Source: Chloroflexota bacterium (GTDB lineage: Bacteria > Chloroflexota > UBA11872 > VXNJ01). Taken from it: a stretch of 64,000 bases of DNA. Below are positions 27,536-61,055 of this stretch, one piece after another (position 1 is the first letter of the stretch; each line of letters opens with the position of its first letter). The notes beneath the pieces were generated by a model. It was not told the DNA's origin. It ran no database searches and was given only the letters and a program-made list of their open reading frames with translations. The stretch covers positions 2,853,908-2,917,907 of the forward strand of contig OZ244593.1 of the NCBI GenBank assembly GCA_965218195.1. Direction: 5' to 3'. A program made the position numbers and the translations under genes.

Positions 27536-27638
27536 ATGCAAAGACGTAATTTTGGAAGTCCGGGAGAGTGAAGCAGGGTCAGAGGCGTATTCTTGATGTC
27601 GATTTACTAATCAACTGAGATCGAAGGCGTGTTACGAC

Positions 27639-28839: not shown

Positions 28840-28911
28840 CGACATAGGCAAGCTCGGGGGCGAGTCCAGTAACGCATGTTTGTCGTCAATGGCGTGATTG
28901 GGGATGGAGAA

Positions 28912-33300: not shown

Positions 33301-33796
33301 GCGGCAGGCCGTTGACGAAACAGACGAGGTCGGCGCGGCGGTTGTAGTTCGGCGTGCGGACACCGGTGAGCTTCAGCTCGCGCACGGCGAGGAAGCGATT
33401 GGAACCCGGCGTGTTGTCGAAGTCGATCACCCGGGCGCGGGCGGACTGCTGGCGCCCCTGGGCATCCTTGTACTGGACGCGAACGCCGGTTCGAATCAAT
33501 CTGTAGAAATCGCGGTTGTGCTGCACCGTCGAACGGCTGACATCGTAGATCGTCAGTTCCCGCAGTGCGTCTTCGACGGCGGAGGCCGGCAGATCGGGAT
33601 TCAGCCGTTCCAACGCGGCTCGTAGATCACGGGTCAGTACCGCCTCCTTGGCGTCGGACCGGCCGAGGGTGCCGTCCACGCCGAAGGACTCCTCGTTCCA
33701 GGCATAGACGCTCTCCCAGCCCAGCCCCTGCTCCAGGTGCTCGGCAAAGGTCGCCTGCACCAGCCGGTCTTCGCTGTTGACGGGCGTCACCGCCAC
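30383..33796 (-). CDS. hsdR: Type I restriction endonuclease subunit R
   Basis: RADLVCFVNGLPLVFIELK, WHTQGSGKS, DEAHR, GFTGTP, QAIARANR. Confidence 0.96.
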   Translation of the reverse strand: MAVTPVNSEDRLVQATFAEHLEQGLGWESVYAWNEESFGVDGTLGRSDAKEAVLTRDLRAALERLNPDLPASAVEDALRELTIYDVSRSTVQHNRDFYRLIRTGVRVQYKDAQGRQQSARARVIDFDNTPGSNRFLAVRELKLTGVRTPNYNRRADLVCFVNGLPLVFIELKAVHKNIREGFDNNLSDYMDENVIAHAFHHNALLIVSNGDRARYGSITSEWGHFSEWKRLDEADKGSLEAEVLLNGMLAQERLLDIIENFILFDDSKPGATRKVIARNHQVLGVNRAVASVEGQDELKLTFPLEQRLRYRVVELPLESRIPTAKQSVLGQSEVASPFIPEGPVDIIERAHPDLGRLGVFWHTQGSGKSYSMAFFAEKVRRKLEGNFTFLLMTDRNDLDSQIYKTFVGCGIADKKTPRAASGDDLEKRLKENHRYVFSLIHKFNKDIAPEQPYSERDDIIVISDEAHRTQAGRLARNMRLALPNASFIGFTGTPLFKQDELTKRIFGDYISRYDFKRSEEDGSTVKLVYENRGEKLGVARTDLNRRIAAKIEEAELDPDQEALLDKLLGQDYEVITADERLEKIAADFVEHCATRWQSGKSMLVCIDKITCARMLQLIVPRWEEKTAAVRLAAQEKRAESEASVEEVVRASLAEEANELAAQAAWLNETIVEIIISEAQNEVKDFANWGFDIIPHRALMKQGFDTADGQRVDVETAFKDPDHPFRVAIVCAMWMTGFDVECLSTLYIDKPMKAHTLMQAIARANRVYPGKDFGLIVDYNGVLKSLREALAQYALGDDDTDGEEVVAPIEERVQALIESIEATEAHLRGLGFNPAALIGAMGFARIKGLKDAVEAVYASDEAKRRFEVLARQVFVRFKALLMEPSVFAYAERHDNVEAIYKKLTERRDTADVTELLKELHRIVNEAIRTQAPGDDQAEELTLDLSQIDMEKLREEFAKKVRHKATALQDIREIVEQKLAQMLAGNPSRMDYQQKYEEIVADYNRDKDRVTIEETFRRLIELVDELDAEQKRAVEEGLSEDELALFDLLKKDNLGKAERERVKQSSRDLLAAIKARLAELDHFWEKEQTKAEMQVFILDELFDSLPTPPFAVEDKQAVASDVYTHIWQQAVSGEIAMVV

Positions 33797-33833
33797 ATCA
33801 CACGTCCCCTTCTGATGGTGTCTAGCGCGGCCA

Positions 33834-35081
33834 TCAGACCGCGATCGCCCCGTTCATCAGACGCGGAAGTAGTAGGTCGCGGGCCTGGGCGAGTTTCTGA
33901 TTCAACAAGGCGAGGCGGAAAACCTGTGCTACCTGCGCTTCGACATGTTCGTTGAACAGATTTCTCAGCGGTTCTGGAGGAAGCGAAAACCGCAGAGTCT
34001 TGAGTTTGTCTTGGCTAATGCCTGGCTGCGCCGTGTTCGAATTGAGATTGACGATTGATTGGCGTGTCTCAGGCTGAGACAGCCAAAAGTAGAGGTAGTT
34101 TTGGCCCACTTTCGCGGAAGCACGAAGGATGAAGACGTGCTCATTGACTGCGCATTGGAAATGTGGAAAGCCGTCTCCGAACATCGAACTCCGACCAATA
34201 TTTGCACCGTCCTTGTAGAGCAAGACGTCCCGGCTTTTGATTACACCACGGCGCATTTTCGCGAAGTACTCTTCGGGAACATATTTCTCCTTTGAGAAAT
34301 CGTACTGGCCCAGAGCAATTACATTCTCCGCGCCGATGGAGGGAATGCCTTCATTCTCCGATGCTCCGCCACGCGGACGCCCGCCAGATTCGAGCGCAAT
34401 CAATACTTGCTCCATCTTCACGCGCTCCCATCCCTCGGGCAGGCCGTTGGTTATCTTGACTTGCTCATGGCCGGGGAAGCGGAAGTGGACGAACCACTCG
34501 CGGTAGAGCAGCCGAGCTGCCTCCTCCAGCAACGCAATCCGCCGCCGGTTGTTCTCGATCAGGTCGTCGTAGGCGGATAGGATCTGCCCAAGTTTCCGTT
34601 GCGTTGGCACAGTTGGCAGCGAGCCAAGCTTGAGCCTACGAATATCTCGCATATTTACGTGGCGGGCGGTCGCGCCAGTTTCGCCAGCCAGCAATGCGCC
34701 CTGCTGCCGAGGAGCGAGCAAGTAGTAGCACAGGAATGCCGGATCGACTTTCTCGCAATCAGGGCGCAAATGGACAGTGCGCTGGCCTAGGCAGACCGTC
34801 TGACCTTCTCCAATGATCGCCACATTCCCTGCGGGTGCCTCTCGCGCCATGATTAGATCATCGGGCTCAGGAATAGCCCGCTTAGTCCATTCCGCGTAAA
34901 CGTCCTCAGAAACTCGATTGACCCCTTCTAGCGTCAGGCGGCCCCATCCGACATTGGGTGTACGAATTGATGGATAGCCGGTCGACTGCGTGGGTGCCGT
35001 TTTGTGTAGACAATCCACGATGAACTCACAAACTTCATCGAGCGTTGGGGTTTCCGCATGCTGAGTTCCAGTGACTTTCAC
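33834..35081 (-). CDS. hsdS: Type I RM specificity subunit S
   Basis: Two TRDs separated by ILSAYDDLIENNRRRIALLEE..LYREWF; C-terminal RDLLLPRLMNG. Confidence 0.93.
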   Translation of the reverse strand: MKVTGTQHAETPTLDEVCEFIVDCLHKTAPTQSTGYPSIRTPNVGWGRLTLEGVNRVSEDVYAEWTKRAIPEPDDLIMAREAPAGNVAIIGEGQTVCLGQRTVHLRPDCEKVDPAFLCYYLLAPRQQGALLAGETGATARHVNMRDIRRLKLGSLPTVPTQRKLGQILSAYDDLIENNRRRIALLEEAARLLYREWFVHFRFPGHEQVKITNGLPEGWERVKMEQVLIALESGGRPRGGASENEGIPSIGAENVIALGQYDFSKEKYVPEEYFAKMRRGVIKSRDVLLYKDGANIGRSSMFGDGFPHFQCAVNEHVFILRASAKVGQNYLYFWLSQPETRQSIVNLNSNTAQPGISQDKLKTLRFSLPPEPLRNLFNEHVEAQVAQVFRLALLNQKLAQARDLLLPRLMNGAIAV

Positions 35082-37192
35082 GCTCCCAACTCCTCGAAGT
35101 TCCGAGCGATCCGCGCCGCGAGCTGAGACGCTTCCTCGTTCAGCTCGTTGAGGTCGACGTGGATAGACCGCAGCGCCTCCTCGAAGTCGAAGTCCTCGTC
35201 TTCCTCCTCCGGCGCGACTCCTACGTAGCGGCCCGGCGTCAGACTCCAGTCGTGCGCCTCGATCTCTGTCCGGGCGACCAACTTCACCAGTCCCTCGACA
35301 TCGCGCAGTTTGGTATCGGGAAACCGCTCTTGCAGCCAGTCGGCCTGGCGCACGAAATACCGCGGGCGGCGCAGCACTTCGACGCCTGCGGTCCGCGCGT
35401 CCTCCAGCGCCCTGCGCGCCCTGTTGATGTCAGTGTTGGCCCAGAGTTCCGACTCGCGCGCGTGGAGCTCGTTCACCGCCATGTCGGCGGTCCTGCCAGC
35501 GAGCTTCGCCGCCAGATCGATCCGCTTGGTCAGGTCTTGACAGCGTTCGGCCACGTCGTGCATGCTCTCGCGCTCTGCGTGCAACGCGGCATTGTCCCGC
35601 GTCGCCCCGTTTCCGCTTTGCCCCCAGTCAGCCGCCCGTGCCGCAACCTCGGCCGCGAACGCCTCGATGCCGGCCGCCAGCGTAGCCTGAGTAGAGGTGA
35701 GTTCCTTCCATGTCTTCTCCAGCGGATCGGGATCGCGCCCCTCGTTGGCGAACGGCGCGGCCAGATCGATCAGCTCCCGAAGCGCCGCCTTGAAGTCCAA
35801 TAGCGGCTCGACAGCTGCTTGCCCCTCGGCAACGGCCCGCGCGAGATAGCTCTCGACCAGACTCAGGAACCGCTCGGACTGGCCCCGGTAGAGCCAGACG
35901 ACGGCGGCGATGTTCTTCTGCTGCTCGGTGCTGAAGTCGTAGATGGCGCGCGTAACTTTGCGGTGGATGTTGCGCGCATCGAGCATCAGGACGTGGTCGC
36001 GCCGGGCTTGATCCCTCTCTTTCGCCCGGTCGAAGAACCAGAGCTGGCAGGGGACGGTACGCGTATAGAAGAAGCTTCCGCGGATGTCGATCATCACGTC
36101 CACGGCGCCCGTCTCGACCAGCTTCCGGCGCACCTTGGCCTCCGCCCGCCCCGCGCTCGAGGCCTGCGAGGACATAACGACGCCGGCGCGTCCGTTCTCG
36201 TTCAGGTAGCTGTAGAAATACTGAAGCCACAGATAGTTGGCGTTGGAGACCTTGTTGGCTTTGTTCACGCCTGGCAGACCGAACGGCACGCGCCTGTCGC
36301 CCTTGACCTTCTCGGCGTCGACCTCGTCCACGTTGAAGGGCGGATTGGCCATGACGAAGTCGCACTTTCCGGCCAGCTCGTGCGGGTCCTTGTAGTAAGT
36401 GATCGCCTCGTTCCCGGCGCGGAGTCTCCCCTCCAGTCCGTGAACGGCGAGGTTGACTTGGGCCAGCTTCGCGGTCGTCTCGTTCTTCTCGTGGCCGTAG
36501 AACGTGACCCGCTGCATGGCGTCTTCGCCCTTGACCTCGATGAAATGGCCCGACTGCACGAACATGCCGCCCGAGCCGCAGGCGGGATCGAAAACGATGC
36601 CGTGATCTGGCTCGATAACGTTGACGATGGTCTGGACGATCGAGGGCGGCGTAAAGAACTCGCCGTTGTCGTGCGCTCCCTGCTTGGAAAACTCGACAAG
36701 GAAGTATTCGTAGATGCGGCCGAACACATCGCCCAAAGCCCCGCGCAGCGCCTCGGAATCGAAGGTCCGCATCATCTCTTCCAGGACGTCGTCCTCGAAG
36801 CGCTCGTAGTCCTTCGGCAACTGCCCAGCGAGCGGCGGAAAGTGGTCTTCCACGGAGTCCATGGCGGCGGTTACGGCTGAGCCGAGATTGCCATCCTTCG
36901 GCATCTGCAACAGCACGTCATAGCGCGCCGCCTCGGGCAGCATGAGGGCGCGGCGCCGGGTGAAATCCGCCTCAATCAGCGGGCGGTCCGGCATCTCTCC
37001 TGAGGCCTTGTCTTTGTCGATAGCCGCCAACGCCGCGTAGTAACGGTTCGTCGCATGTCGCAGGAAGATCAAGCCAAGGATAGGCATGAAATATTCGTTC
37101 GATGCGAGGTTCGAGTTGGCCCGCAGGTTATCCGCGACCTTCCAGAGATCCGCCTCGAACTTCTCGATGCCGGTCAGGTGGTCCGCGATCAA
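35078..37192 (-). CDS. hsdM: Type I RM N6-adenine methyltransferase subunit M
   Basis: LWKVADNLR, GEFFTP, DPACGSGG, NPPF, LTPGRYVG. Confidence 0.96.
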   Translation of the reverse strand: MIADHLTGIEKFEADLWKVADNLRANSNLASNEYFMPILGLIFLRHATNRYYAALAAIDKDKASGEMPDRPLIEADFTRRRALMLPEAARYDVLLQMPKDGNLGSAVTAAMDSVEDHFPPLAGQLPKDYERFEDDVLEEMMRTFDSEALRGALGDVFGRIYEYFLVEFSKQGAHDNGEFFTPPSIVQTIVNVIEPDHGIVFDPACGSGGMFVQSGHFIEVKGEDAMQRVTFYGHEKNETTAKLAQVNLAVHGLEGRLRAGNEAITYYKDPHELAGKCDFVMANPPFNVDEVDAEKVKGDRRVPFGLPGVNKANKVSNANYLWLQYFYSYLNENGRAGVVMSSQASSAGRAEAKVRRKLVETGAVDVMIDIRGSFFYTRTVPCQLWFFDRAKERDQARRDHVLMLDARNIHRKVTRAIYDFSTEQQKNIAAVVWLYRGQSERFLSLVESYLARAVAEGQAAVEPLLDFKAALRELIDLAAPFANEGRDPDPLEKTWKELTSTQATLAAGIEAFAAEVAARAADWGQSGNGATRDNAALHAERESMHDVAERCQDLTKRIDLAAKLAGRTADMAVNELHARESELWANTDINRARRALEDARTAGVEVLRRPRYFVRQADWLQERFPDTKLRDVEGLVKLVARTEIEAHDWSLTPGRYVGVAPEEEDEDFDFEEALRSIHVDLNELNEEASQLAARIARNFEELGA

Positions 37193-37239: not shown

Positions 37240-37578
37240 TGGCTTGCCCCAAGGCTTGTACCACCAGTCATGTTAAGCCCGCGAGCGTTGTGGACTTGCC
37301 CCCATCTTGGTACCAGTTGCAAGTTTAGTTTCGCGGTTCATCGAACAACCGCCGGGGTCTTCATGGCGAAGGTCTTCGGGGCCAGGTTCCCCAAGGCGCC
37401 GTGGGGACGCGCGGCATTGTAAGTACATACGCCAATCTTCTATCGTCTCTCTGGCATCGGCCAACGACAGGAACCAGTTCTCGTTCAGACATTCCGCCCG
37501 AAGCCTGGCGTTGAATGCCTCGATCATGGCATTGTCAGTGGGCTTGCCTGGCCGACTGAAGTCGAACTCCACACCATT
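37240..37578 (-). mobile_element. Two abutting IS3 remnants (37240-37286 right IR of the 46072 type; 37291-37578 3' orfB of the 24753 type)
   Basis: CCCCAAGGCTTGTACCACCA match to 46079ff; FSRPGKPTDNAMIEAFNARLR. Confidence 0.8.
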
Positions 37579-37737
37579 ATGGCTGTGGTCCGAGGCGTCC
37601 TCCCTCGCAGTGCCAGCCAGGGCAATGCCTTCACCACGCGACGAACTCCCAGGCTCCCGTCGACCAGCCCTCGGGAGGCAGGCCACTTTTGTACAACTGA
37701 CCGCCTGAAGGTTTCATTACCATAGGGCGCACGGTGG

Positions 37738-38544
37738 CTATGGCTCTCGCCTTACCAGCGACCGCCAAAAGTGCCGGGCGTTTTGAAGGTTCTCCCGGGT
37801 CATATCCGTCGGTGGAGACAGCACGAAGTTCGGCCCGCCAACATCCCATGAGAACCCAACCGGCTCGATCGTCGCATTGACGAGTTCGGTATATAGACGG
37901 AGGCGTTCAACCCGATTCCTCTCCCAATAGCAACGCATAAAAAGGTCGAAGTAGCCCGCGTCAGAAGTCTACCAATATCGAACGGCTTCTTTTTCGCCCC
38001 GCCACGGCAGGCCACGAAGGTTGAAGTAGTCGACCATTAGGTCGGAAAGCTGGTACAACATCCTCAGGTCCACTGCCCGCTCGTAAACTGGGTCCGGGGA
38101 ATCGGACATGCGTTGGGTCTGCGCAAGATTGTAGATCGCGTGGTTCGAGCGACTAACTGACTCCCCTTCCGTGAGTTTCGGACTCGATTCACTTCGCTTC
38201 AGCGCATCGCGTAGCAGCTTGAGACTTCCAGACCTGTCCAATGCGATTACGCCGGACGGGACCCAGTTGAAGAAACTTGCCCTGGAGTCTGACAGAGAGA
38301 TCGTGCCTAGCTCGGTTCTGACTAGCTCCTCGACCTGTTGTAGCGTCACCATAATCAGATCAATCAGAATGCCGCCGCAATAGACCGTGCCATTGGTAAT
38401 CGACAGATCACACTCATTTAGGACGATGAGCAGGTCTCGATCACTATGGGCATTGAGGGTTGCCTGTCCAGTCGAGCCCAGGAACAACAAGCCGTCCACG
38501 TTTCGGTTCTCTTTCAGGCGTTCGACCAGAGATTCGAAATCCAT
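37738..38544 (-). pseudogene. Nucleotidyltransferase-domain protein with in-frame TAG at 37969-37971
   Basis: LFLGST...SDRDLLIV motif; reading frame continues RYW*TSDAGYFDLFMRC to 37738. Confidence 0.65.
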
Positions 38545-38806
38545 TCCTCACCGCATACCAGGCTCGCACAGTATCAACGACCGGGCTTCTACTTCACCAT
38601 GCATCATCGCCAATACAACCGATGGGCGCTTCAGCCTACCAAGGACTGATATACCGCCACTTCTTCCCCACGTACTCACTATCTGTCGAGCACAATTGTG
38701 CGAGCTTCAGCCTGAGCGTCAGCACGACGGTTCTTGATTTTGGTCAGTTTGGCGGATCGGACCCGATGCCGAATGTACGCGGGCGGCAAGGATGCAGACG
38801 GCACCA

Positions 38807-38834
38807 TTCACACATAGGGCTTGATATATCTGCA
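38807..38834 (+). other. dif-like 11-6-11 site, copy 2
   Basis: TTCACACATAG-GGCTTG-ATATATCTGCA; marks the start of homology with the 798 copy. Confidence 0.5.
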
Positions 38835-38881
38835 AACCAGAGCAATCGTCATGCGGACCTTCTCCCGCAAAGGAGTTCACC

Positions 38882-39823
38882 GTGTCAACCGCTCAGGCCC
38901 TGCCGACCGTCTTCTCTGGCTCCAGCACCGGCTGGGAAGGCTCCCTCTATGCCTTCCTCGCCGAGAAGCAGCGCCGCTCCGGCTCCAACCGCACCCCGGA
39001 CTCCTACTACCGCACCCTCCGCCACTTCTTCGGCTCCCTCCAGAAGTCGCCCGATCAGGTCTCGCCTCAGGACGTCTTCAGCTTCGCCCATGGCATCGGC
39101 CTCTCTGGGCGTGAACCATCCCCCGTAACCGTCGGCGCCCGTCTCTCCTGCATCTCTTCCTTCTTCAAGTTCCTCATCCGCATGGATGTCCTCAATGCCA
39201 ACCCCTGTGACCGGGTGGATCGTCCCAAGCCTCGCCCCAGCTCCCCTAGCGGCCTCTCCGCTATCCAAGTGCAGCAACTCCTCCAGGTCATCCCCGATAC
39301 CGTCAAGGGCAGGCGCGACCTCGCCATCGTTCTCACTCTAGTCCTAACCGGCAGACGCCGATCCGAGGTCATCAACCTCACAGCCGGCGACATCTCCTTC
39401 GACGACTCTGCCGTGTTCTACCGCCACGTCGGCAAGGGCGGTGTGCGCGGTCGCCGTGAGCTTCCCCGTCCGGCCCTTGCCGCCATCGTTAGGTCACTCG
39501 CCGATGTCGGCAAGGACCTCTCCTCCATGCAGCCCTCCGAGTCGCTCTGGCAGGCCGGCGCAGGACCCACCGGCGTATCCAGCGCCACCTTCTACAACCG
39601 CTTCCGCACCTACCTTCGAAAGGCCGGTCTCCCTCTCTCCGGTCTCCATGTCCTACGCCACTCCGCCGCCAAGCTCCGCCGTGACCTCGGCGAGTCCGTA
39701 GAGTCCGTAAGCCAGTTCCTAGATCACAGCTCGCTCGCCGTCACGACCACCTACCTCCGCAGACTCGAGGGGCAGCGTGATACCGCCTGGCAGGGCGTCG
39801 CCAGTGTTATCGGCGTGAGCTAG
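38882..39823 (+). CDS. Tyrosine recombinase (XerC/XerD-like), paralog 2
   Basis: Same R-K-HxxR-H-Y residues; colinear with 872-1813. Confidence 0.93.
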   Translation: MSTAQALPTVFSGSSTGWEGSLYAFLAEKQRRSGSNRTPDSYYRTLRHFFGSLQKSPDQVSPQDVFSFAHGIGLSGREPSPVTVGARLSCISSFFKFLIRMDVLNANPCDRVDRPKPRPSSPSGLSAIQVQQLLQVIPDTVKGRRDLAIVLTLVLTGRRRSEVINLTAGDISFDDSAVFYRHVGKGGVRGRRELPRPALAAIVRSLADVGKDLSSMQPSESLWQAGAGPTGVSSATFYNRFRTYLRKAGLPLSGLHVLRHSAAKLRRDLGESVESVSQFLDHSSLAVTTTYLRRLEGQRDTAWQGVASVIGVS

Positions 39824-39998
39824 CTCGCCCCGCCTACGGCCATCCTTCGCCTCACAGGTCTAGTATCTGTCCCGGTGGCGCGGCAGCTCATACCCCTTCC
39901 ACAATGATGCGTGCATCACTGGCGCCCCGCCTTGACCTTCCCGCGCCTCCAGAGCGTTCATACATCCCGCTCCAACTCCCCTTCCGCTGGAGGTCGCC

Positions 39999-41609
39999 AT
40001 GCCCAACTCCATACTCTCCATCGCCACCTACGCCCGCGTCTCCTCCGATGAACAGCGTGACCGCCATACCGTCCGCAATCAACGCGCCGCCCTGTCCCGC
40101 CGTCTGTCTTCCGAGCCGGGTGTTGTCGTCTTCAAGCATTACGAGGATGACGGCGTCTCGGGCACCATCCCGCTCGAAGACCGGCCGGCTGGCGGCCCGC
40201 TTGTCCGTGATGCTCGCGCCGGTCGTTTCTCCCAGATCTGGGTAGTTCGTGCCGATCGCTTGGGTCGCGACGCCTTCGAGCTCCTCCGCATCTGGAGGGT
40301 GTTTGAGTCGATCGGGGTCGCGCTCCGCGCCACCGACGAGAACATCGACGATCCCTTCTACTTCGATATCCACGCCGTCATAGCCGCCAACGAGCGCCGC
40401 AAGTTCCTCGAACGTTCCGCCGAGGGCATGAACCGCGCCGCCAAAGAAGGCCGCTATACCGGCGGCATCGTCCCTCTCGGCTATACGGTCTCAGGGGATC
40501 GAGGTTTCCGCCGCCTCGTCCCGGACGACTCTCTCATGTGGGAAAACCTCTCCGCCGCCGACATCGTCAGGCGCATCTATGACCATCTCGCCCATGACGG
40601 CTGGAGCTGTAAGCGCATCGCAACCGAGTTCAACGACCTCGGCATACCCACCGCCTATCGCCGCGCCGGCCGCGGCGTCAGAGGCAAGCGCACCCGGGAA
40701 ACCTGGCACTCCGGCCATGTCCGCAACCTCGTCGTCAATCCCGTCTACAAGGGCGAACTCCAGTACGGTCGCAGGTCTTCCAAGCCCAACGGCCGCGAGG
40801 TCATCTCCGCTCCCGTGACTGCCCTCGTCTCCGAAGATACCTGGAACGCCGCTATCGCCACCCTCAAGCGCAACCGCATAGCGGCCAACAACTCCCGCCA
40901 CACCTACCTCCTCCGCTCGCTCATCCGCTGCGCCGTCTGCGGCCTCGCCTTCTGCGGTACCTGGGCCAGAAATAAGCCCCGCTACAGGTGCAACGGCGCC
41001 ATGGTCGAGCGCGGCCCCTTCCCCGGTAAGTGCATCGGCGCTTCCATCAAGGGTGATCTCCTTGAAACCACCGTCTGGTCCGATATCTGCCGCTTCCTCT
41101 CCGATCCAGGCCCCCTCATCGACGAACTCCTCGCTGAGTCCGACGACGCGCAGACGCGCGCCGCGGCCGAGGCTGAACGCAGCACTCTTATCGCAGCACG
41201 CGACGCCGCACGGGATCGCCGCTTTCGCGCCCTCGACATCTACACCCGTGGCAAGATCCCCGAGAGTGACTTCGACGCCATTACCGCCGAGGTGGATCGG
41301 GAGCTCAACAGGCTGGCTGAGCGGCTCGCCGCGCTCGAACCTCCGAAGGACGATCCGAGCGACGCCGTTGCTTCCGAGGACCTGCTATCCGAGATCCGAA
41401 ACCGGCTGGACGGCGGACTAACCCAGGCCGAGCGGCAGGAAATCGTTCAGCTGCTCGTGCGCCGGATCACCGTCCACACGACCCTGCCCAAGCAGGGCCG
41501 CAAACAGGTCCGCATCGTTATCGATTACCGGTTTCCTGGTGCAGCGACGACTGGCACGGTCATCGCTGCGAGTTCCAGCTACAATCTCCGCCGCGTTATC
41601 GCCGCCTGA
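39999..41609 (+). CDS. Large serine recombinase, paralog 2
   Basis: YARVSS, zinc ribbon; colinear with 1995-3602. Confidence 0.95.
   Translation: MPNSILSIATYARVSSDEQRDRHTVRNQRAALSRRLSSEPGVVVFKHYEDDGVSGTIPLEDRPAGGPLVRDARAGRFSQIWVVRADRLGRDAFELLRIWRVFESIGVALRATDENIDDPFYFDIHAVIAANERRKFLERSAEGMNRAAKEGRYTGGIVPLGYTVSGDRGFRRLVPDDSLMWENLSAADIVRRIYDHLAHDGWSCKRIATEFNDLGIPTAYRRAGRGVRGKRTRETWHSGHVRNLVVNPVYKGELQYGRRSSKPNGREVISAPVTALVSEDTWNAAIATLKRNRIAANNSRHTYLLRSLIRCAVCGLAFCGTWARNKPRYRCNGAMVERGPFPGKCIGASIKGDLLETTVWSDICRFLSDPGPLIDELLAESDDAQTRAAAEAERSTLIAARDAARDRRFRALDIYTRGKIPESDFDAITAEVDRELNRLAERLAALEPPKDDPSDAVASEDLLSEIRNRLDGGLTQAERQEIVQLLVRRITVHTTLPKQGRKQVRIVIDYRFPGAATTGTVIAASSSYNLRRVIAA
41540..41583 (+). 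other. Serine-integrase att junction (P of element B | P' of element D)
   Basis: TGCAG-N5-ACTGGCA-CGGT-CA-TCGC-TGCGAGT-N5-CTACA, centre CA 41561-41562. Confidence 0.8.
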
Positions 41610-41859
41610 CGCCCAAATCCCTCGCGCCCGACCTCTTCCAACTGAGACAACGCCCCCTCACGACTGCGCAGTTCTAGATCCCGCGGCCTGTGTGCTGGCG
41701 AGTAAACATCTCGAAACGTCGGGAAAGCGCTCCGCCCATCGGTTCCCGCACTTGCTTCCGATTGCCTGTTCGTACATTTAGTCGAGCCGGCTGGATACAG
41801 AAAGCCGAGCCGGGCGCCTCCGCCCCGCAGCTCTCGGGCAGTGTCTCTTACGAACACTT

Positions 41860-42335
41860 CTTTCTATATATAAGAGCATATAAGAGCGACTTCCCCGAGT
41901 CGCAATCGCCGGCGCAGATGCGCCACGAAAGCCGCCCACGTCGCCCCTGTCGCGCCACACGGCGCGAAACGAGGCCTTGGGCGAACATGGATTGCTTGGC
42001 CGCGAGTTCGGCCGACACGCGCGCCACGGGGCGTCGTTCTACGGGGCCTGGCGGTTGTGAAATTGAGTGCTAATTCTCGGACCCGACGCTGCTCGCGGGG
42101 CTCCGCCTATGGCCGAACCGCGCCCGATTGGCCTCGCTGTCGCCTCCGACCCCACTACCATCCACTACCAAACGTTTTTTGCCAGCAAAGGTAGTGTTTG
42201 CTGGTAGTTGCTGGTCTCTGGCACCGCGTTTTCGTTACCTGGAGGGCTTCTCCCGGCTCACGCCAACCCGGCGAACTCTTCGCAAATCTGCCTCCAGCGT
42301 CATCTCAATTATACCGTCGAGGCCAACGCGCCAAG
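41860..42335. repeat. Conserved non-coding block, copy 3
   Basis: CCTGTCGCGCCAC 41946-41958, 27-mer 42176-42202, minus-strand TATAAT 42308-42313. Confidence 0.85.
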
Positions 42336-42410
42336 CCTGCTACGCGGCCTCGGTCGCCGCCGAGGTCCTCACCGCTTGCGGAAGCCCGCAGGAGCCATCG
42401 CTGCCAACCC

Positions 42411-42914
42411 TCACGATTGCCACTCTTTTTCCATTAGCAACTCCCCGATGGTCTTTTCCAGCGCTTGCGCGATTGCGCTCAGCGTCTTGTGCTTGGGCGT
42501 CTGTTCGCCGCTCTCGATCCGCACCAGAGTGACCCGACCGATGTTAGCTGCGGTAGCCAGCGCCTGTTGAGTCATCCCGGCCGTCTCCCGCAACTGGCGA
42601 ATACGTTTGCCAAGTGTCTGCCTTCCCCGCATCGCGATCGCCTCGACTGTCGGACGGTACGTTGCGTCGCAGTAGTGACGGGCGAAGTCCCACGGAATCT
42701 CGATCTGCTCGCCTCCCATCGTTTCAAGGACCATTGCGTAGGGGTTCGGCAGTGAGAGGTTGGATACCGCAGTACGTTCCTTGATCTCGGGGATGTCGTC
42801 GAACGGTATGAGTCCCTTGCAGCCGTCCGCAAAGCTCATCTCGATCCCGTCCTCCAGCAGGCTCGCAACCATCATCATCCGGTTGGCATTCTTCACCAGT
42901 ACCGTGTCGACCAC
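42411..42914 (-). CDS. DUF2442-like domain + XRE HTH, putative antitoxin
   Basis: MSFADG N-terminal domain; LGKRIRQLRETAGMTQQALA..RIESGEQTP. Confidence 0.7.
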   Translation of the reverse strand: MVDTVLVKNANRMMMVASLLEDGIEMSFADGCKGLIPFDDIPEIKERTAVSNLSLPNPYAMVLETMGGEQIEIPWDFARHYCDATYRPTVEAIAMRGRQTLGKRIRQLRETAGMTQQALATAANIGRVTLVRIESGEQTPKHKTLSAIAQALEKTIGELLMEKEWQS

Positions 42915-42917
42915 TAG

Positions 42918-43154
42918 CTAGTCTCCATGAATCCTGTCCCACGTCCTTCGGATCTCTTCGGCGTATCTCGCATACGCATTCATGATGTCCCGAAAGTTGC
43001 CGGGAGGAGGCTTGTCCATGTAGGTTCCTCCGTTCAATTCGATCCGGCAGACGTCTTCGTTGCCCACCCAGACGTGCACGTGCGGAGGTTCGAAACTATT
43101 CTCCCGAGTGTTGACGACGAAGCGGAACTGACCTTCAACGGCGACGGTCGGCAT
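42918..43154 (-). CDS. DUF4160-like protein, putative toxin
   Basis: MPTV...GQFRF...E..FEPPHVHV...W, 78 aa. Confidence 0.75.
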   Translation of the reverse strand: MPTVAVEGQFRFVVNTRENSFEPPHVHVWVGNEDVCRIELNGGTYMDKPPPGNFRDIMNAYARYAEEIRRTWDRIHGD

Positions 43155-43440
43155 TTAAGTCCTTGGACCTGGAGACGCTGCCGCTATAGGCTCAGTGTAT
43201 CGTAGAACGACACATGCCGTGAGGGTGTTGATGGTTAGTGGACGCCCATGGCCAACGGTCGCTAAGCAGACATGGTGCGTGGTTGTCGAACTGCCGGTTG
43301 CGTCCGGCCGCTCAGGTGTCTAGACGACAGAGGGGCCACGACAGCACCTCGCAAGTTCGCAGGAACGCTACACGAATCTAGGAAGAGCAATGGCGCCGAA
43401 CGTTTTCGCCGAACACCGACACAGGTCGACTTCCAGGCCC

Positions 43441-44641
43441 TGACCTTGCCCCCGAAAATGCCCTCGATTTTGAGTAGAGTCCGTTCAATGGGAGGAGACG
43501 GACATGAGACGGAGCAGGTATCGCGAGGAACAGATCATCGGCATCCTCAAAGAGCACCAGGCGGGGTTGCCAGCCGCAGAGCTCTGCCGCAAGTACGGGG
43601 TCAGCGGCGCGACGTTTTACAAGTGGCGGTCCAAGTACGGCGGCATGGAGGTATCAGACGCCAGGAAGCTGAAGGGGCTGGAGGATGAGAACCGGCGCCT
43701 GAAGAAGCTGCTGGCGGAATCGATGCTGGATGTGGCGACGCTGCGCGAGCTACTTGCAAAAAACTTCTAACGCCCGGATTGCGGAGGAAGGCCGCGGCCT
43801 GGGCGATGACGGAGACTAGTCACTCGCAGCGCCGTGCCTGCGCTCTTGTCGGGATGGATCCGAAGACTTACCGCTATGAATCGAGGCGGCCGGACGACGC
43901 CGGCATCCGCAAGCGGTTGCGGGAATTGGCCGAGCAGCGCCGACGGTTCGGCTACCGCCGTCTGCACATCCTGCTGGCCAGGGAAGGCATCCGGCTCAAT
44001 CATAAAAAGCTCTATCGCAGCTATCGCGAGGAACGGCTCACGGTGCGCAAGCGAGGCGGGCGCAAGCGGGCGCTCGGCACGCGTGCCCCGCTGCTGCTCC
44101 CCTGGAACCGCAACCAGCGCTGGTCGCTCGATTTCGTCGCGGATGCATTGGCCGACGGCAGGCGGTTCCGCATCCTGGCGGTGGTGGACGACTTCAGCCG
44201 CGAGTGCCTCGCCCTCGTCGTCGACACATCGCTGTCTGGCGTCCGCGTGGCTCGGGAGCTGGACCGCATCGTCGAGCTGCGGGGCCGCCCCCGCATGCTG
44301 GTCAGCGACAACGGCACCGAGCTCACCTCAAACGCTATCCTGCGCTGGCAGCAGGAACGCGGCGTTGGCTGGCACTACATCGCACCGGGCAAGCCCGTGC
44401 AAAACGGCTTTGTCGAGAGCTTCAACGGCCGCCTGCGCGACGAGTGCCTCAACGAACATCTCTTCGCCGGCCTGGCCGAAGCGCGGCGGATCATCGCGGA
44501 ATGGAGGTACGACTACAACACAACACGCCCGCACACGAGCCTGGATGGGCTCACACCCAACGAGTTTGCAGCCCGCCCCAATTGGGGCCATAACCTGAAA
44601 AGATTCTACTTATGAGTGAGGGTAAGTTGGGGGCAGGGTCA
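43441..44641 (+). mobile_element. IS3-family IS (IS407-like), second copy, no matching target duplication
   Basis: Near-identical to 27639-28839 (identical ORF translations); flanks GCCC / CCTT. Confidence 0.95.
43504..44615 (+). CDS. IS3 transposase OrfA (43504-43770) / OrfB via -1 frameshift
   Basis: Identical translation to first copy. Confidence 0.92.
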
Positions 44642-44860
44642 CCTTGTTTGAGAGGCTTTTGGTACACGCGGTTAGCGTCGAAGCGTGGCGACCGTCACCT
44701 GCCGTCACAGTTTGTGAGGTCAGGGGCGGGCTCGTATCACGGGCGGACGGGATAGCCTCGGTTGACCACCGGCTTACGCGATCCAAAGCCCAGAGAGCTA
44801 TGGGGACCGATGACAGGCCAGGGACGGCCAGCGGCTCAAAACGGGCGGTCCTTTGAGAAG

Positions 44861-46071: not shown

Positions 46072-47301
46072 TGACCTGCCCCCAAGGCTTGTACCACCAA
46101 TTATGTTAGTGCGACGAGCGCCGGGTCGGGCTCCACAGGCAGGCTAGCCGCCGGCGCCGGCGGCCTGTAGCCCAGCGAGCTGTGCGGCCGGATGCGGTTG
46201 TAGGTCTGCTTGTACTCTCCAGTCAGCACCTGTGCCTCCCGCAGCGTGTAGAAGATCTCCCGGTCCAAGAGCTCGTCACGCAGCTTGCCGTTGAAGCTCT
46301 CCACATAGCCGTTCTCCCAAGGTGAGCCGGGCTCGATGTAGAGGGTCTTGGCTCCCACCCGACCAAGCCAGGCTCTGACCGCCCTGGCCGTAAACTCCGG
46401 ACCGTTGTCCGAGCGGATGTGTTCGGGTACTCCCCTTCTCAGCATCAACCCGGCCAGCGTCTCGATAACGTCCACAGACTTGATGCTCCTCTCCGCCCTG
46501 ATCGCCAGGCACTCTCGCGTGTACTCGTCGATGACGGTCAGCAGCCGTACCGACCTGCCGTCATGCGTCCTCGTGAAAACGAAGTCGTAGGCCCACACGT
46601 GGTTGCGGCGCTGCGGTCGCAGACGTACGCACGACCCGTCGTTGAGCCACAGCCTTGACCGTTTCGGCTGTTTCCGCGGCACCTTCAGCCCCTCCTGCCT
46701 CCAGATCCGCTCCACTCGCTTGTGGTTGACCGCCCAACCGCGTCGCCTCAGCAGTGCTCCGATCCTCCGATACCCGTACCTGCCGTACTGGCTCGCCAGC
46801 TCCACGATCGCCGCGGTCAACTCCTGTTCGTAGGCCGCAGCCACAGGCTCGTAGCGCTGTGTCGATCGTGGTTGTCCCAGCGCCCTGCAGGCACGCCGCT
46901 CGGAAACGCCCAACGCCCCCCTGATCCGCTCTACGCACTGTCGGCGACGGGAGGCGCTCAGAAGTTTCCCTGCGCCGCCTCCTTCAGTATCTGCTTGTCC
47001 AGCGTCAGATCGGCTACCGCTCGCCGCAAACGGCCGTTCTCCGTCTCCAGCTGCTTGAGCCGTCGCGCCTGGTCGATCCGCAGCCCCCCGTACTCCGCCC
47101 GCCAGCGGTAGAAGGTCTGCTCCGTCACCCCTATCTTCCGACTGGCTTGGGCCACCGTGCTGCCCTCAGCCATGGCCACCTCGGCCTCCCGCAGCTTCTT
47201 GATCACCTGCTCCGGCGTATGCTTCCGCCTTGCCATCTGTTCCCCCTCCTTTGGCCCAGTTTCTAACATTTATCCTGGACCAGGTTTCGGGGGGCAGGTC
47301 A
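46072..47301 (-). mobile_element. IS3-family IS, target duplication CGCG
   Basis: IRs TGACCTGCCCCC at both ends; CGCG on both flanks. Confidence 0.93.
46101..47236 (-). CDS. IS3 transposase OrfA (46958-47236) / OrfB via -1 frameshift
   Basis: G GGA AAC slippery site; YGYRRI, WAYDF, SDNGPEF, ENGYVESFNG. Confidence 0.9.
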
Positions 47302-47430: not shown

Positions 47431-49779
47431 ATGCGTAGGCTGTTGTCCGCGGCGCTCGCCGTCGGACTCCTTTTCTTAGTGGCCGTCGGTATAGCCACCG
47501 CCCACGAGGACCACACCACCGACCAATGGCCGACGACATGCGTCGACCTCAACGACGTCGTCGAGACGCATCTCGGTAATCATGGCAACGTCGGCATCTA
47601 TCAGCGGACCTTCGGCGATCAGGCCGAAGCCGCCTGCCAGAACGACCACCGCAACGACGTGATAGCCGTGTTCGGCTGGGCAATAGCCGAGGAGGCCGGT
47701 GCACGTAGCTCTGACTTGGAGCTTGACTGGCCCACGACCTGCGTCGAGCTAAACGACATCGTGGAAGGTCACCTAGGCAATCAGGGCAACGTCGGCATCT
47801 ATCAGAACACCTTCGGCGATCAGGCCGAAGCCGCCTGCCAGAACGATCACCGCAACGACGTGCGATCGGTCTTTGCTTGGGCCATCGGAACGACCGACAC
47901 CGGTCCGCCGGCAGCTTCCGCCCACCGATTTATTGCAGTCAGCGCTGGCGCATATCACACGTGTGCGCTGCGCGAAGGCGGCGAGCCGGTGTGCTGGGGG
48001 GCTGAAGCGGCAAAGAGCGAGGAGCTATACATCCCAGACCGTCAGCTCGGTCAGGCGTCTCCGCCTGAAGGCGAGCGGCTCGTGGCGATAAGCAGTGGTA
48101 GCTACCACACATGTGGGCTGCGCCACGACGGGACCGCAGTGTGCTGGGGAGCCGAACTCAACGATCGGGCTGAAACGTATCGCCAGGTGGGATTCGGCCA
48201 GACATCCCCGCCGGATGGTGAGGTCTTTCAGTCGATCGGCAGTGGAGAGTATCACACCTGCGGACTGCGCGAAGGGGGAGAAACGGTGTGTTGGGGGGCC
48301 GGATCACCGGCGCGCGAGGGTGAAGCCAAGCCCTACTACGACCGGGGTCAGGCGTCGCCACCTGAGGGTAAACGCTTCGCGACGATCAGTAGCGGCGGCG
48401 AGCACACATGCGCGTTACGCAGCGACGGTGGACTCGTATGCTGGGGAAGCGATCCGTTCTGGGAAATCGATACGATGCCGGGCGGGACGGTTCCGCGGGT
48501 CATAGCGCTGGACAGCATCGGTGCGCATACTTGCGGCATTCTGGAAGATGGGAGAGCCTTTTGCTATGCGGCGGACCGATCGGATGAGGTCAACCCTGGA
48601 CAGTCTCCGCCGAGCGATGAGCGGTTCGTATCCATCAGCGTGGGTTACCGTCACGGATGCGGGATCCGGGAGGACCGGACGATTCGCTGTTGGGGTGATA
48701 ACCGGGCGTCACCTTGGGGCGAAGAGTTCTTGTCGGTGAGCGCAGGCGGGCGGCACACTTGCGCCTTGCGCTACGACCACACGATCAAGTGCTGGGGGGA
48801 CAACTTGTACGGCCAAACCATCCATCCTGGGCAGATGACAGCCAGGCGGGCGGACGCGCGGTTTGCGGCTATCAGTCCCGGCAGGGACCACACATGCGCG
48901 CTCTTGGAAGATGGCGAAGTCGTCTGCTGGATACGCCTGGGGATGTTCTCTTCACCGTTTCCGGGAGAGCGATTCGTAGCGATCAGCAGTGGGTTTGACC
49001 ACACTTGCGGGCTCCGCGAGGATGGCACAGTCAGGTGTCACGGGGACATTGCCTCTGACCATGGGCAGGCGTCGCCGCCCAAGGGCGAGCGGTTTAAAGC
49101 CATCAGCAGCGGGGCATATCACACCTGTGGGCTGCGCCAAGGGGGCGAAGCGGTGTGTTGGGGGACCAAGTTGCGGGTGCTCGAGGGTGAAGCGGGTTCA
49201 TACTTCGGCCGGGGACAGGCATCACCGCCTCAAGGCGAGCGTTTCGTGACGATCAGCAGCGGCGGATTTCACACATGCGCAGCGCGCGGAAATGGGAGCG
49301 TGGTCTGCTGGGGAACCGAGGATGAAAGCCAGACTCTCATTAGCTTCGAATACGGTCAATCCTCGCCGCCGGCGGGTGAAGTCTTCGATTCCATAACCAG
49401 TGGCAGATTCCATACGTGCGGGCTGCGCAAGGACGGTACCGCGACATGTTGGGGCCGTGATGAGGAGGGGCAATCGTCGCCGCCAGCGGGTGAAGTCTTC
49501 GATTCGATAAGCAGCGGCGCGTTCCACACGTGCGGACTGCGGAAGGACGGAACGGCTGTATGTTGGCGCCGGCCTGCCTTTGGACAAGTGTCGCCGCTAA
49601 GCCAGGAGCGTTTCGCGGCGATTAGCAGCGGGGGGTTGCAAACATGCGTTATTCGAGGCGACGGGACGGCGGTCTGCTGGGGCGATAGATACCTCGACAT
49701 GCTCGGCAGGTTCACGCTGTTCGATGCCTTGGAATTTGCAGGACCCGACCGCCGCGGGATCACAACAGCAGCCCGATGA
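47431..49779 (+). CDS. Secreted RCC1/BLIP-II-like repeat protein with duplicated N-terminal Cys/His domain
   Basis: Signal peptide; ISSGxxHTCGLRxDGxAVCWG..GQASPP repeats. Confidence 0.88.
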   Translation: MRRLLSAALAVGLLFLVAVGIATAHEDHTTDQWPTTCVDLNDVVETHLGNHGNVGIYQRTFGDQAEAACQNDHRNDVIAVFGWAIAEEAGARSSDLELDWPTTCVELNDIVEGHLGNQGNVGIYQNTFGDQAEAACQNDHRNDVRSVFAWAIGTTDTGPPAASAHRFIAVSAGAYHTCALREGGEPVCWGAEAAKSEELYIPDRQLGQASPPEGERLVAISSGSYHTCGLRHDGTAVCWGAELNDRAETYRQVGFGQTSPPDGEVFQSIGSGEYHTCGLREGGETVCWGAGSPAREGEAKPYYDRGQASPPEGKRFATISSGGEHTCALRSDGGLVCWGSDPFWEIDTMPGGTVPRVIALDSIGAHTCGILEDGRAFCYAADRSDEVNPGQSPPSDERFVSISVGYRHGCGIREDRTIRCWGDNRASPWGEEFLSVSAGGRHTCALRYDHTIKCWGDNLYGQTIHPGQMTARRADARFAAISPGRDHTCALLEDGEVVCWIRLGMFSSPFPGERFVAISSGFDHTCGLREDGTVRCHGDIASDHGQASPPKGERFKAISSGAYHTCGLRQGGEAVCWGTKLRVLEGEAGSYFGRGQASPPQGERFVTISSGGFHTCAARGNGSVVCWGTEDESQTLISFEYGQSSPPAGEVFDSITSGRFHTCGLRKDGTATCWGRDEEGQSSPPAGEVFDSISSGAFHTCGLRKDGTAVCWRRPAFGQVSPLSQERFAAISSGGLQTCVIRGDGTAVCWGDRYLDMLGRFTLFDALEFAGPDRRGITTAAR

Positions 49780-50310
49780 CGGGAACGCAGGCGAGCCTGT
49801 ACAGGGAGCCAAGATTGGACCGCCGATTGTCTTAATCCCGCCACCAGAACGTCGGTGGGGCGGCTTGGCAGTGGGAGCGGGCAGTCGGTAGCCGAAGAAC
49901 TGCGGGACTTGAATGGGCCGGGCGTCTGCGGGTTCAGCAATAGTCGTTGGCCCCTAAACTCCGGGCGATTATCGGCGCGCATCTCTTCCGGGCTGGGCGT
50001 GGCTTCTGTCAACTCGTAGGCGAGAGTTCTGTCCCGACCAGGTCTGGATCTGTGTAGCAATCGGCCGGGGCGTGCACTCCGTTCGGCTGATGCGCACGGT
50101 GACTCAGAGTTGTCCCGGCCTCGCCTTCAGTGGGTCATTCTTACACCGGCGATGACACTAACTGCGGAGTTCCAAATTGTCAGCGCAAAGTGATGGATTC
50201 CGCGACGGCAGCAGCTTACGTCAGGGCCGGTATCGAGGTTGGCGGTGCGCGTAACCGGACGCTACCAACCGCTACCTGAAGCACCTCCCTCACCCGGGTC
50301 TATCGGCCGG

Positions 50311-52557: not shown

Positions 52558-53175
52558 CGCCCAGCCCCCTTCCAGTCGCCCGCCTTGACGAAAAGATACG
52601 CAGCAATCGCCTGTTGGTCGCCCTGTCTACACTCTTTCGTTGCGAGCGCCAAGTTCGACTTCTGCTTAGCTCTAGGCCGATATACAGCTCGTCAACCGGG
52701 TGCCGCTTCTGGCCTGACGAAAGCCAAGCGAAACTCTCCCTCCGCCGAGATGTGGAGCAGAGTCCCCAAACACCCTACAGGAGCGATGTGACAACGAGCG
52801 TGCAATAGAAGCCAGTTGTCTCCGTAGGGCTGTGCATTCTAGTCGTCCAACTCCGATCACCGATGATGGCACCGGGCTTCCGCAGGGCTGCAGGCTATAC
52901 CCCAGACTACGTTTTACCGCTATGAGTTGATAGGAGCCGAAGGGAGCCGCTGGATTACTCCCACTGCCAGCGCCTGCGATGCCTCCTCGCTACTTGCTGG
53001 CGCGCCGGCCTGGTAGATGCAGCCCCCCGACGACGGCTGCCGCTACGACGAAGATCAGCGCAGTGGCCGGCCTGCCTCGGTCCAACCCGCTAACGTCGTG
53101 CGTCTCTTCACGATGTTAGCTGCACGGACGCTTGCGGCACCTGGGCTCGTCTCGCTCGCTACACATACCCCACGC

Positions 53176-55170: not shown

Positions 55171-55176
55171 CCCCTA

Positions 55177-55263
55177 TCAATCCATCGTCTGGTACAGAGC
55201 GTAGATCGCCATCATGTCAAAGGCGGTCGGTGAACAGATCTCAAAACCCTGAGGGATAGCCAT
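55177..55263 (-). pseudogene. C-terminal remnant of metzincin protease gene
   Basis: MAIPQGFEICSPTAFDMMAIYALYQTMD aligns with CSPQPFDVMAMYVLYQMS of 63719-64000. Confidence 0.7.
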
Positions 55264-55312
55264 ACCTCAAAGTCAAGCCGTGTTCCCCTCATCGGCCTCT
55301 GGCTGTCGTGGC

Positions 55313-57577: not shown

Positions 57578-57830
57578 GTAGGACGCCTTGTCTTTGAATT
57601 GGCAATGCCCGAGCCTAAGCCTATCAGGCCGGAAAAACGTTCGACCCTCTGGTCAAGAGAAGCTCTACTCTATCGCGCACCATTGGCTGGCTCGGCTGCC
57701 TGTCCCGCCGAATTGACCTGCTCTGACGGTACGTATCACGAGCAATTCAAGCGCTACGAGCATCGGTATACGCTCGCCGGGCAGGACGGTGGCTGGCAGC
57801 GCTGATGACGATGATGAGTGAAGGGATACC

Positions 57831-58697: not shown

Positions 58698-58775
58698 TGG
58701 ACTAGCTGGCAGTGCCGCTGAATAGCCCGGGAGGTTCGCTGACCGAGTTCAGCGCCTTTCCGTGTCAACCATCCA

Positions 58776-61013: not shown

Positions 61014-61055
61014 ACTGCTCCAACTAGCATCGCCGTGCTCACTCGCCTCTTCATC

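Follow-up and report, generated by a model that had tools for sequence, protein, structure and literature searches.

The 64,000-nucleotide stretch of Chloroflexota DNA analyzed here (hereafter the window; genome positions 2853908–2917907, lying on one 3.59-Mb contig) is part of a tandem array of nine genomic islands that interrupts the comM gene, each island carrying a gene for a large serine recombinase (LSR). We show that the attachment (att) site of these islands, attP, is located inside the 3′ end of the LSR gene, where the codons up to a central CA dinucleotide form the P arm and the last 15 codons form the P′ arm, and that neighboring islands meet at joints in which a P arm and a P′ arm face each other across this CA. 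The islands were probably stacked at comM by LSR-mediated exchange at the CA between attP and sites that already bear a P half.

The array measures 407.5 kb, or 11% of the genome, and all islands have the same orientation; the LSR module occurs nine times, on the + strand only, between 2.80 and 3.18 Mb. In order, the islands are 30.1, 28.4, 25.6, 38.0, 47.2, 54.1, 50.0, 74.5 and 59.6 kb long. The ends of the array are a comM-3′/P′ joint (genome 2773355) and a P/comM-5′ joint (genome 3180881), and eight P/P′ joints form the internal boundaries. Homology of the ninth module stops exactly at the CA and is followed by the 5′ part of comM (Mg-chelatase-like) in antisense, ending in ...AAMNPCPC; the 3′ part of comM (CPCGY...) is found at 2772.9–2773.4 kb, fused at the CA to a diverged P′ arm. 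Rejoining the two flanks of the array restores the comM reading frame (AAMNPCPCGY). The main target of the island family is comM, at the AAMNPCPCGY codons, and not the GNAT acetyltransferase gene that is interrupted within the window. Tandem stacking of islands, which an initial annotation of the window had proposed, is borne out by this nine-island array. The islands are not copies of each other, as matches of ≥70% identity to another island cover only ~10–20% of each, a large share of which is due to a 1.2-kb insertion sequence (IS). The LSR genes are free of internal stops in nine out of nine cases and are under purifying selection (median ratio of non-synonymous to synonymous substitution rates, dN/dS, 0.24 over 36 pairs).

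The window holds the end of island 3 (E3), the whole of island 4 (3554–41560) and the first 22 kb of island 5 (E5). Island 4 is a composite: a 4.6-kb remnant, here called fragment C (a P′ arm, a HEPN gene and a captured ankyrin–GNAT flank), is followed by an island that we call B. Three joints result:

3530–3579, + strand: attP-type joint J3 (P of E3 / P′ of fragment C), CA centre at 3554–3555, at the end of LSR gene 1995–3602
8166–8214, + strand: attL-type joint between GNAT and the P′ arm of island B, CA at 8189–8190
41537–41609, + strand: attP-type joint J4 (P of island B / P′ of island E5), the site flagged in the initial annotation, CA at 41561–41562, followed by the 15-codon LSR tail with its stop codon at 41607–41609

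The types and coordinates that the initial annotation had assigned, P/P′ at 3554, GNAT/P′ at 8189 and P/P′ at 41561, are all correct, and a CA centre is present at each. The flagged site lies within the last 16 codons of LSR gene 39999–41609; the letters of 41540–41609 read as a P arm ending in GCAGCGACGACTGGCACGGT, the CA, and a P′ arm beginning with TCGCTGCGAGTTCCAGCTAC that runs to the stop of this open reading frame (ORF). The P′ arm at 41563 had also been described as more similar to that at 3556 than to that at 8191, and it is (63.0% vs 57.5% over 650 nt), while its nearest relative lies outside the window, at genome 2942629 (96.3%). This resemblance of P′ arms is not due to chance, since they are homologous across ~650 nt (blastn, E down to 1e-127) and all 12 of the 12 P′ arms in the genome extend the LSR frame by 15 codons and stop at a common position, with the tail consensus IAAS-x-S-Y-N-L-R-R-V/I-I/L-A-A/V. 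The 12 arms comprise the eight at P/P′ joints, the comM/P′ end, the GNAT/P′ joint, a head-to-head joint at genome 3155399 and an orphan site at 3423680. Furthermore, 797–4328 and 38806–42358 form a single unbroken homologous block with 79% identity, containing an unnamed ORF, a tyrosine recombinase gene, the LSR gene and ~750 bp past it, and the copy at 8191–8850 aligns only with the portion of this block beyond the CA. Because the block runs unbroken across both P/P′ joints, P/P′ is the intact attP of the element family rather than a scar.

The architecture of the site is that of a serine-integrase attP. An alignment of 38 P/P′ joints from five genomes shows dyad symmetry about the CA, with mirror matches of ≥0.92 at positions ±2, 5–10, 17, 18, 20 and 24, which amounts to the ~50-bp dyad-symmetric layout of such sites. 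For comparison we used five related genomes (G001, G002, G003, G004 and G006). The attP of G004 (CCACCCG CA TCGCTGCC) and the attB deduced from its two array ends share only GCA, as would be expected of a 2-bp crossover; a tyrosine recombinase would need a longer overlap region. From the symmetry of the site we infer that the crossover occurs at the CA, and the anatomy of the att sites points to the LSR, not the adjacent tyrosine recombinase, as the enzyme that makes the joints. Read outward from the CA, NCNNTGCG is common to the P, P′ and comM-3′ half-sites, and the comM-5′ half (TGGATTCATT) is distinct. The P/comM end therefore retains the sole distinctive half of attB and may still be recognized as a target, an idea that can be tested.

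The protein itself has the catalytic, recombinase, zinc-ribbon, coiled-coil and att-site features of the large serine recombinase family. Pfam domains Resolvase (E 1.6e-24), Recombinase (E 4.6e-17) and Zn_ribbon_recom (E 2.1e-9) are present, and R13 is invariant and S15, C311, C314, C331 and C345 are nearly invariant in an alignment of 92 sequences. Absence of the coiled-coil motif was considered and rejected, as the AlphaFold2 (AF2) model contains the hairpin (helices 384–416 and 422–446; mean predicted local distance difference test score, pLDDT, 88.9). Residues 517–536 correspond to 41549–41609 of the window; in the model, residues 517–525, encoded across the att centre, are disordered and the P′-encoded tail forms a terminal β-strand (530–535). 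Integration into comM swaps this tail for MDSLPRLA. The closest solved structure, 9iu2, is matched with an E-value of only 1.3e-8. The NCBIfam models for CcrC and CcrB score 61.3 and 53.6 bits against cut-offs of 900, and the XisF equivalog NF041201 reaches 111 bits where 375 are required, so the LSR is not of the XisF type.

How was the flagged joint formed? We compared J4 with J5 (genome 2942629) over 25, 50, 100, 200 and 400 nt either side of the CA. To the left, identity is 56, 70, 78, 73.5 and 73.4%, and to the right 100, 92, 94, 96.5 and 92.9%; the joint is thus a chimera of two lineages. The LSR of island B, whose gene supplies the left arm, is the outlier of the nine, with 79% amino acid identity to the LSR of E3 versus 85–90% for the others, and the last 600 nt of its gene are 71–75% identical to all other copies, which share 81–92% among themselves. 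Distance matrices of P and P′ arms are uncorrelated across the joints (Mantel r = −0.03, p = 0.55; the Mantel tests of arm pairing used 7–9 units). RecA-mediated recombination within the ~3.5-kb shared modules, placing circular islands beside resident ones so that each P/P′ joint is simply the native attP of its island, would agree with the unbroken homology of the module across the joint, and the islands do have IS copies and further ≥90% identical stretches in common, so that homologous exchange among them is likely. As the origin of the joints, however, we consider it very improbable. The flanks of 41561 are only 71–75% (left) and 57–63% (right) identical to those of other lineages, save for the 96% sister arm; the switch in similarity maps to a 9-nt centre that offers no usable homology to RecA; the GNAT/P′, comM/P′ and P/comM joints all break at one common nucleotide; and P and P′ arms assort independently. 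On these grounds an exchange at the att centre would explain the joint well and a homologous crossover poorly. The initial annotation had listed homologous recombination between related elements as another route, which is hard to reconcile with a switch exactly at the centre.

One position of the site may reveal which half-sites belong together. At ±8, C:G is found in 33 of the 38 joints, G:C in both joints of G004, C:A in one, and G:G in the joint at 41561 and in one of G001, the last two being chimeric at this position. At 41561 the base at −8 of the P arm is G; its counterpart, C at +8, occurs in the P′ arm at 8191, and the P′ arm at 41563 has G instead. The matched G and C give a modest indication that 8191–41560 is a single island, B, whose two half-sites form a pair, and that another lineage contributed the P′ arm at 41563. 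We also considered whether the LSR of island B belongs to the clade of G004, where both arms have the mirrored variant, and rejected this, as the two share 73–74% amino acid identity. Its nearest relative is an LSR of G001 (81%), the P arm of which also has G. A sister of island B was not found in the five related genomes, where the best match to its left arm is 81% over 330 nt.

Taken as a mechanism, stacking would proceed by LSR-mediated cleavage and religation at the CA, with the attP of an incoming island paired to a resident site that already holds a P half, either the P/comM end or an internal P/P′ joint. Given that the resident partner already has a P half, the pairing would be attP × attR and/or attP × attP, not attP × attB. 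Serine integrases have been described as acting on attP × attB only, and on attL × attR with a helper (PMC3783163), and the attP × attB-only description, with attL and attR as products, is also given in 10.1101/2025.05.02.651858. The LI and A118 integrases, and likewise CcrAB, are nonetheless reported to recombine attP with attP (PMC3783163). The premise of the initial annotation that canonical serine integrases never pair attP with attL or attR is too strong in light of this reported precedent; the site-specific exchange that it proposed stands.

Several points weigh against stacking by this route. The action of the LSR on P/P′ or P/comM sites is read from sequence, and a tyrosine recombinase gene adjoins every LSR gene. 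The coiled-coil motif enforces attP × attB selectivity in the integrases that have been studied; the hairpin of our LSR is normal, and relaxed pairing is therefore not explained by its loss. The covariation of half-sites depends on one position, and since 2 of the 12 P′ arms in this genome carry the +8 variant, a chance match for island B is to be expected in roughly 1 in 6 cases. A Mantel test lends no significant support to P′ (8191) and P (41561) as a pair (r = 0.165, p = 0.135, n = 9). Finally, a path of canonical reactions may exist, for example attL × attR between two chromosome copies with different islands. An earlier Mantel result with seven elements (p = 0.03) was dropped since it did not hold with nine units, and the further Mantel tests were non-significant as well (element pairing r = −0.02; shifted controls −0.09 and −0.06).

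Could canonical reactions alone have built the array? Each island would then enter an empty comM gene by attP × attB, after which attR × attL recombination in trans, with a directionality factor, would give a tandem pair and an empty site. Such a reaction yields a P arm of one island joined to a P′ arm of another with the exchange at the centre, as observed at 41561, and it is in line with the normal coiled-coil motif of the LSR; intact comM and a comM/P′ fragment occur together in G003, so a population may contain both filled and empty sites. We nevertheless find this scheme unlikely. It demands two differently occupied chromosomes per cell for each of the eight joints here and for at least 20 in G002, and it locks internal islands in, yet the LSR genes are intact in all nine islands with a dN/dS of 0.24. 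No candidate directionality factor was identified; the small ORFs of the P′ arms match no Pfam or NCBIfam family except for the XRE-type helix-turn-helix (HTH) gene at 42411–42914. Nor do canonical reactions by themselves yield GNAT/P′ without a P/GNAT partner.

LSR-mediated exchange with P-bearing sites thus remains our preferred explanation, and it leads to a bolder one that we offer tentatively, as possible rather than probable: the LSR family accepts attP-type joints as both partners (attP × attP), which makes comM an open-ended, integron-like rack of 25–75-kb islands. Under attP × attP, every internal joint could take up or release whole islands, no separate directionality factor being needed, and the P and P′ arms, hence the C-terminal tails of the LSRs, would be reshuffled at every event. 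The rack would then hold nine islands (11% of the genome) here and ~22 islands (~25%) in a congener.

Two further att sites lie elsewhere in the genome. A head-to-head joint, in which the reverse complement of P′ is followed by CA and P′, is located at genome 3155399 (3155380–3155420), inside island 9. An orphan attP-like site without an LSR gene is found at genome 3423680 (3423660–3423700) on the minus strand, where the central TG is the mirror of CA. The 8-kb segment 3147403–3155437 is a 90–97% copy of 3415798–3423718. The att-site family seems to recombine in further combinations.

The joint at 8189 records a different kind of event. The GNAT 5′ fragment (Pfam Acetyltransf_1, E 7.6e-11) breaks off just past its RRGVG motif and is a pseudogene with a 4-bp deletion. 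It is 81% identical to the intact gene at genome 204748–204200, 80.5% to that of G003 and 77% to that of G004. At the insertion site the intact GNAT genes read GGGCGG(G/T)C(A/G)TTGATGG, which resembles the comM target around GGGCAT and makes GNAT a plausible secondary site. The view that the GNAT/P′ joint is the record of an insertion outside the main target is accordingly supported. The initial annotation took the GNAT gene to be cargo carried by fragment C; instead, 5383–8188 is a captured chromosomal flank, probably from another lineage. Its first 86 nt (5383–5468) match genome 205421–205336 at 88%, which is the 3′ end of the gene upstream of the chromosomal GNAT gene, and the ankyrin gene order between this upstream gene and GNAT is the same as at the chromosomal loci of G003 and G004. 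The chromosomal ankyrin–GNAT locus is syntenic in this genome (204 kb) and three relatives.

Which island entered the GNAT gene? According to the initial annotation, an element D, which begins at 41563, first inserted into GNAT, and the attP of B then recombined with the resulting GNAT/P′ site of D to leave GNAT joined to P′ of B and P of B joined to P′ of D. This order reproduces the joints at 8189 and 41561 exactly, and in it, as found, the half-sites of B match each other and the P′ arm at 41563 differs from them in type. It also predicts a joint of P of D with the 3′ half of GNAT at the right end of D, where genome 2942629 is P/P′ instead. Neither the GNAT 3′ half nor a P/GNAT joint is present anywhere in the genome (next best match E = 0.75), so that this history needs at least one further event, an excision or deletion, and another history has fewer steps. 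The GNAT flank is moreover about equally distant (77–81%) from three chromosomal copies, which suggests that the composite formed in another lineage. We regard this order as distinctly less plausible than the canonical scheme, itself unlikely; it is neither recoverable from the sequence nor the shortest history. In a shorter one, island B would have inserted into the secondary site in the GNAT gene, and the stretch from the joint of P of B with the GNAT 3′ half to the next joint would then have been removed by one more exchange. Alternatively, the composite may have formed elsewhere by excision from an upstream left end to the right end of B and have arrived here as a unit. Sequence alone does not settle in what order these events took place. 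In G002, both flanks of an ankyrin–GNAT locus (L080; G002:C1:1506000–1513000, ~1511000) are kept, with 87% identity to 201–210 kb of our genome, and the 5′ side of GNAT is lost. The GNAT 3′ remnant there starts ~10 nt from the position of the GNAT/P′ fusion, which is suggestive and possibly a coincidence.

The LSR family recurs in four of 30 related genomes searched, with one distant match in addition, and within the species collection it is found only in those four Chloroflexota assemblies. LSR genes in the four other genomes end in P/P′ in 31 of 36 cases, in P/comM in three and otherwise in two. A 20-nt joint pattern was counted 22 times in G002, five times each in G001 and G006, once in G004 and not at all in G003, with 0–1 matches for a reversed control. 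An uninterrupted comM gene with the target site is present in G003 (539-aa open frame), comM-3′/P′ ends in G004 and G006, and P/comM-5′ ends in G002, G004 and G006. Besides its intact comM gene, G003 has a comM-3′/P′ fragment at a contig end (L004, L007), in which the P′ start is of the same unusual type as at the array end of our genome; no LSR gene was found in G003, which suggests an unassembled array or mixed strains. The 22 LSR loci of G002 are 26–64 kb apart and extend from 3.13 Mb over the ends of the contig as far as 0.30 Mb. Provided that this contig is circular and the series unbroken, the array of G002 would measure ~0.97 Mb, or 25% of the genome; the comM 3′ end was not found in G002.

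Chaining of island variants from several strains into one contig would be another source of such joints. The assembly is of metagenome type, and contigs from public runs are short: ten runs from four studies contain part of 40800–42400, and contigs from four public runs cover both sides of 41561 at ≥95% (39600–43300), in pieces of 69–492 nt, none of which, among those listed, bridges 41561. Three entries with small shares bear the label 'sponge metagenome', from which we derive no habitat. An assembly artefact is still barely credible to us. The module copies differ by 8–29% at the nucleotide level, which makes the joints unique sequence; island cargo is mostly unrelated and both array ends fit one comM gene; and four other assemblies, of which three have chromosome-scale contigs, show the same architecture. 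A search of metagenome contigs with the LSR query gave 155 pattern matches and no relative.

By the features tested, the LSR is not a Ccr, DsiB-type or XisF recombinase, and the system works like the accretion of SCC elements (staphylococcal cassette chromosomes) and of ssrA islands. Tandem and nested islands mobilized by LSRs are known for SCC elements at rlmH (PMC13739063). As in SCC and SCCmec (CcrAB, CcrC), LSR-mobilized islands use one conserved gene and form tandem or nested stacks with internal att boundaries (PMC13739063), and pairs of attP-type sites are reported substrates of CcrAB (PMC3783163). SCC elements differ in their target, rlmH with centre GA against comM with centre CA; a single LSR with a tyrosine recombinase replaces the CcrA/CcrB pair here, attP lies inside the LSR gene, and arrays of nine to ~22 islands (0.4 to ~1 Mb) are far larger than SCC composites. 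In Dehalococcoides, also Chloroflexota, tandem ssrA islands with a CcrB-like integrase have been reported and accretion proposed (PMC3146451). The same report describes non-duplicate islands (DsiB) in tandem downstream of a single-copy gene, each with a ~540-aa serine integrase and a conserved integration module at one edge, much as here; its further features are the ssrA target, 20-bp direct repeats, a span within 100 kb and a second, small serine recombinase (PMC3146451). Our array differs in having comM as target, ~50-bp attP-type joints in the LSR frame, a tyrosine recombinase partner and a length of 407 kb, and by target and module it falls outside the DsiB type as that type is described.

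The integrases of phages φC31, Bxb1 and LI/A118 share with our LSR the resolvase, recombinase and zinc-ribbon domains, the coiled-coil hairpin and a ~50-bp dyad-symmetric attP centred on a dinucleotide, whereas most integrated copies here are bounded by P/P′ joints. With P/P′ at eight of nine LSR genes here and 31 of 36 in relatives, and with chimeric arms at 41561, the LSR would not appear to be of the strictly unidirectional attP × attB type of φC31 and Bxb1. A serine recombinase target in a magnesium-chelatase gene is described for sr1WO of phage WO (PMC9203015), and multi-targeting LSRs have been described too (PMC10083194). Accretion of integrative and conjugative, integrative and mobilizable, and cis-mobilizable elements (ICE/IME/CIME) is similar in that unrelated elements are stacked at one att site, with possible co-mobilization of composites (PMC3146451; PMC13651849); those elements use tyrosine recombinases and their attL and attR keep an identical core, in contrast to the 2-bp serine-type crossover here. 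What distinguishes the comM islands is the location of attP within the LSR reading frame and the size of the arrays, nine to ~22 islands. We found no description of comM arrays of LSR islands in Chloroflexota in open-access papers and preprints.

A single site-specific rack of exchangeable islands can make up between a tenth and a quarter of a small bacterial genome, with restriction-modification, toxin-antitoxin-type and eukaryote-like repeat-protein genes as cargo. If the LSR does join attP-type sites, it would be a natural serine integrase with relaxed pairing despite an intact coiled coil, suited to testing models of partner choice and of interest for the serial stacking of large DNA cargos at one site. 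The 8 + 31 natural joints, together with the attL, attR and attB sequences, are a resource for half-site rules such as the ±8 variant.

The remaining features of the window are as follows:

797–3553, + strand: right-end module of island E3, with a tyrosine recombinase gene (812–1813, Pfam Phage_integrase) and the LSR gene (1995–3602, Resolvase + Recombinase + Zn_ribbon_recom), the final 16 codons of which lie past the joint
3556–4328, + strand: P′ arm of fragment C, beginning with the 15-codon LSR tail and including a conserved 97-nt block (4101–4197)
4574–5218, + strand: HEPN-domain gene of fragment C (Pfam HEPN, E 1.2e-27)
5383–8188, + strand: captured copy of the chromosomal locus, with the last ~90 nt of the upstream gene, ankyrin-repeat genes 5591–6344 and 6464–7777 and the GNAT 5′ pseudogene 7851–8188
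8191–41560, + strand: island B (33.4 kb; Pfam annotation), with the mirrored half-site variant; it contains the P′ arm (8191–8850), PIN, DUF2330, a solute-binding protein, IS copies, a VWA protein, an ECF sigma factor, a leucine-rich repeat (LRR)/PD40 protein, LysR, an LRR-FN3 protein, type I restriction-modification genes (30383–37192), a tyrosine recombinase gene (38882–39823) and the LSR gene (39999–41609)
41561–64000, + strand: left 22 kb of island E5 (47.2 kb in total), with IS copies, an SRAP gene and RCC1-repeat and LRR/PD40 proteins
41563–43280, + strand: P′ arm of island E5, sharing 95.8% identity over 1.7 kb with the beginning of island E6
42411–42914, − strand: XRE-type HTH gene in the P′ arm of E5

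A XerC/D-like tyrosine recombinase gene (812–1813; 38882–39823) and an unnamed ORF (88–954; 38460–39128) precede every LSR gene; the unnamed ORF, ahead of the tyrosine recombinase gene, belongs to no Pfam or NCBIfam family. The 97-nt block is conserved ~550 nt into the P′ arms (4101–4197, 8720–8816 and 42123–42219). This block, in which GCCAGCAAA...TTTGCTGG form an inverted repeat, may have a regulatory role at the left ends of the islands. The type I restriction-modification cargo of island B (30383–37192, − strand) is complete, with HsdR (1137 aa), HsdS (415 aa) and HsdM (704 aa). Island 5 has a cluster of large repeat genes (47431–63719), in which the RCC1-repeat genes 47431–49779 (+) and 55313–57577 (−) are inverted copies, 73–85% complementary, and LRR and PD40/LRR proteins are encoded at 50311–52557, 53176–55170, 58776–61013 and 61056–63719. 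Two copies of the 1.2-kb IS, with an rve-type transposase, are 99.8% identical (27638–28840 and 43440–44642), further copies with ≥99% identity are present in islands 2, 7, 8 and 9, and IS fragments occur at 24577–25176, 37273–37686 and 46101–46913.

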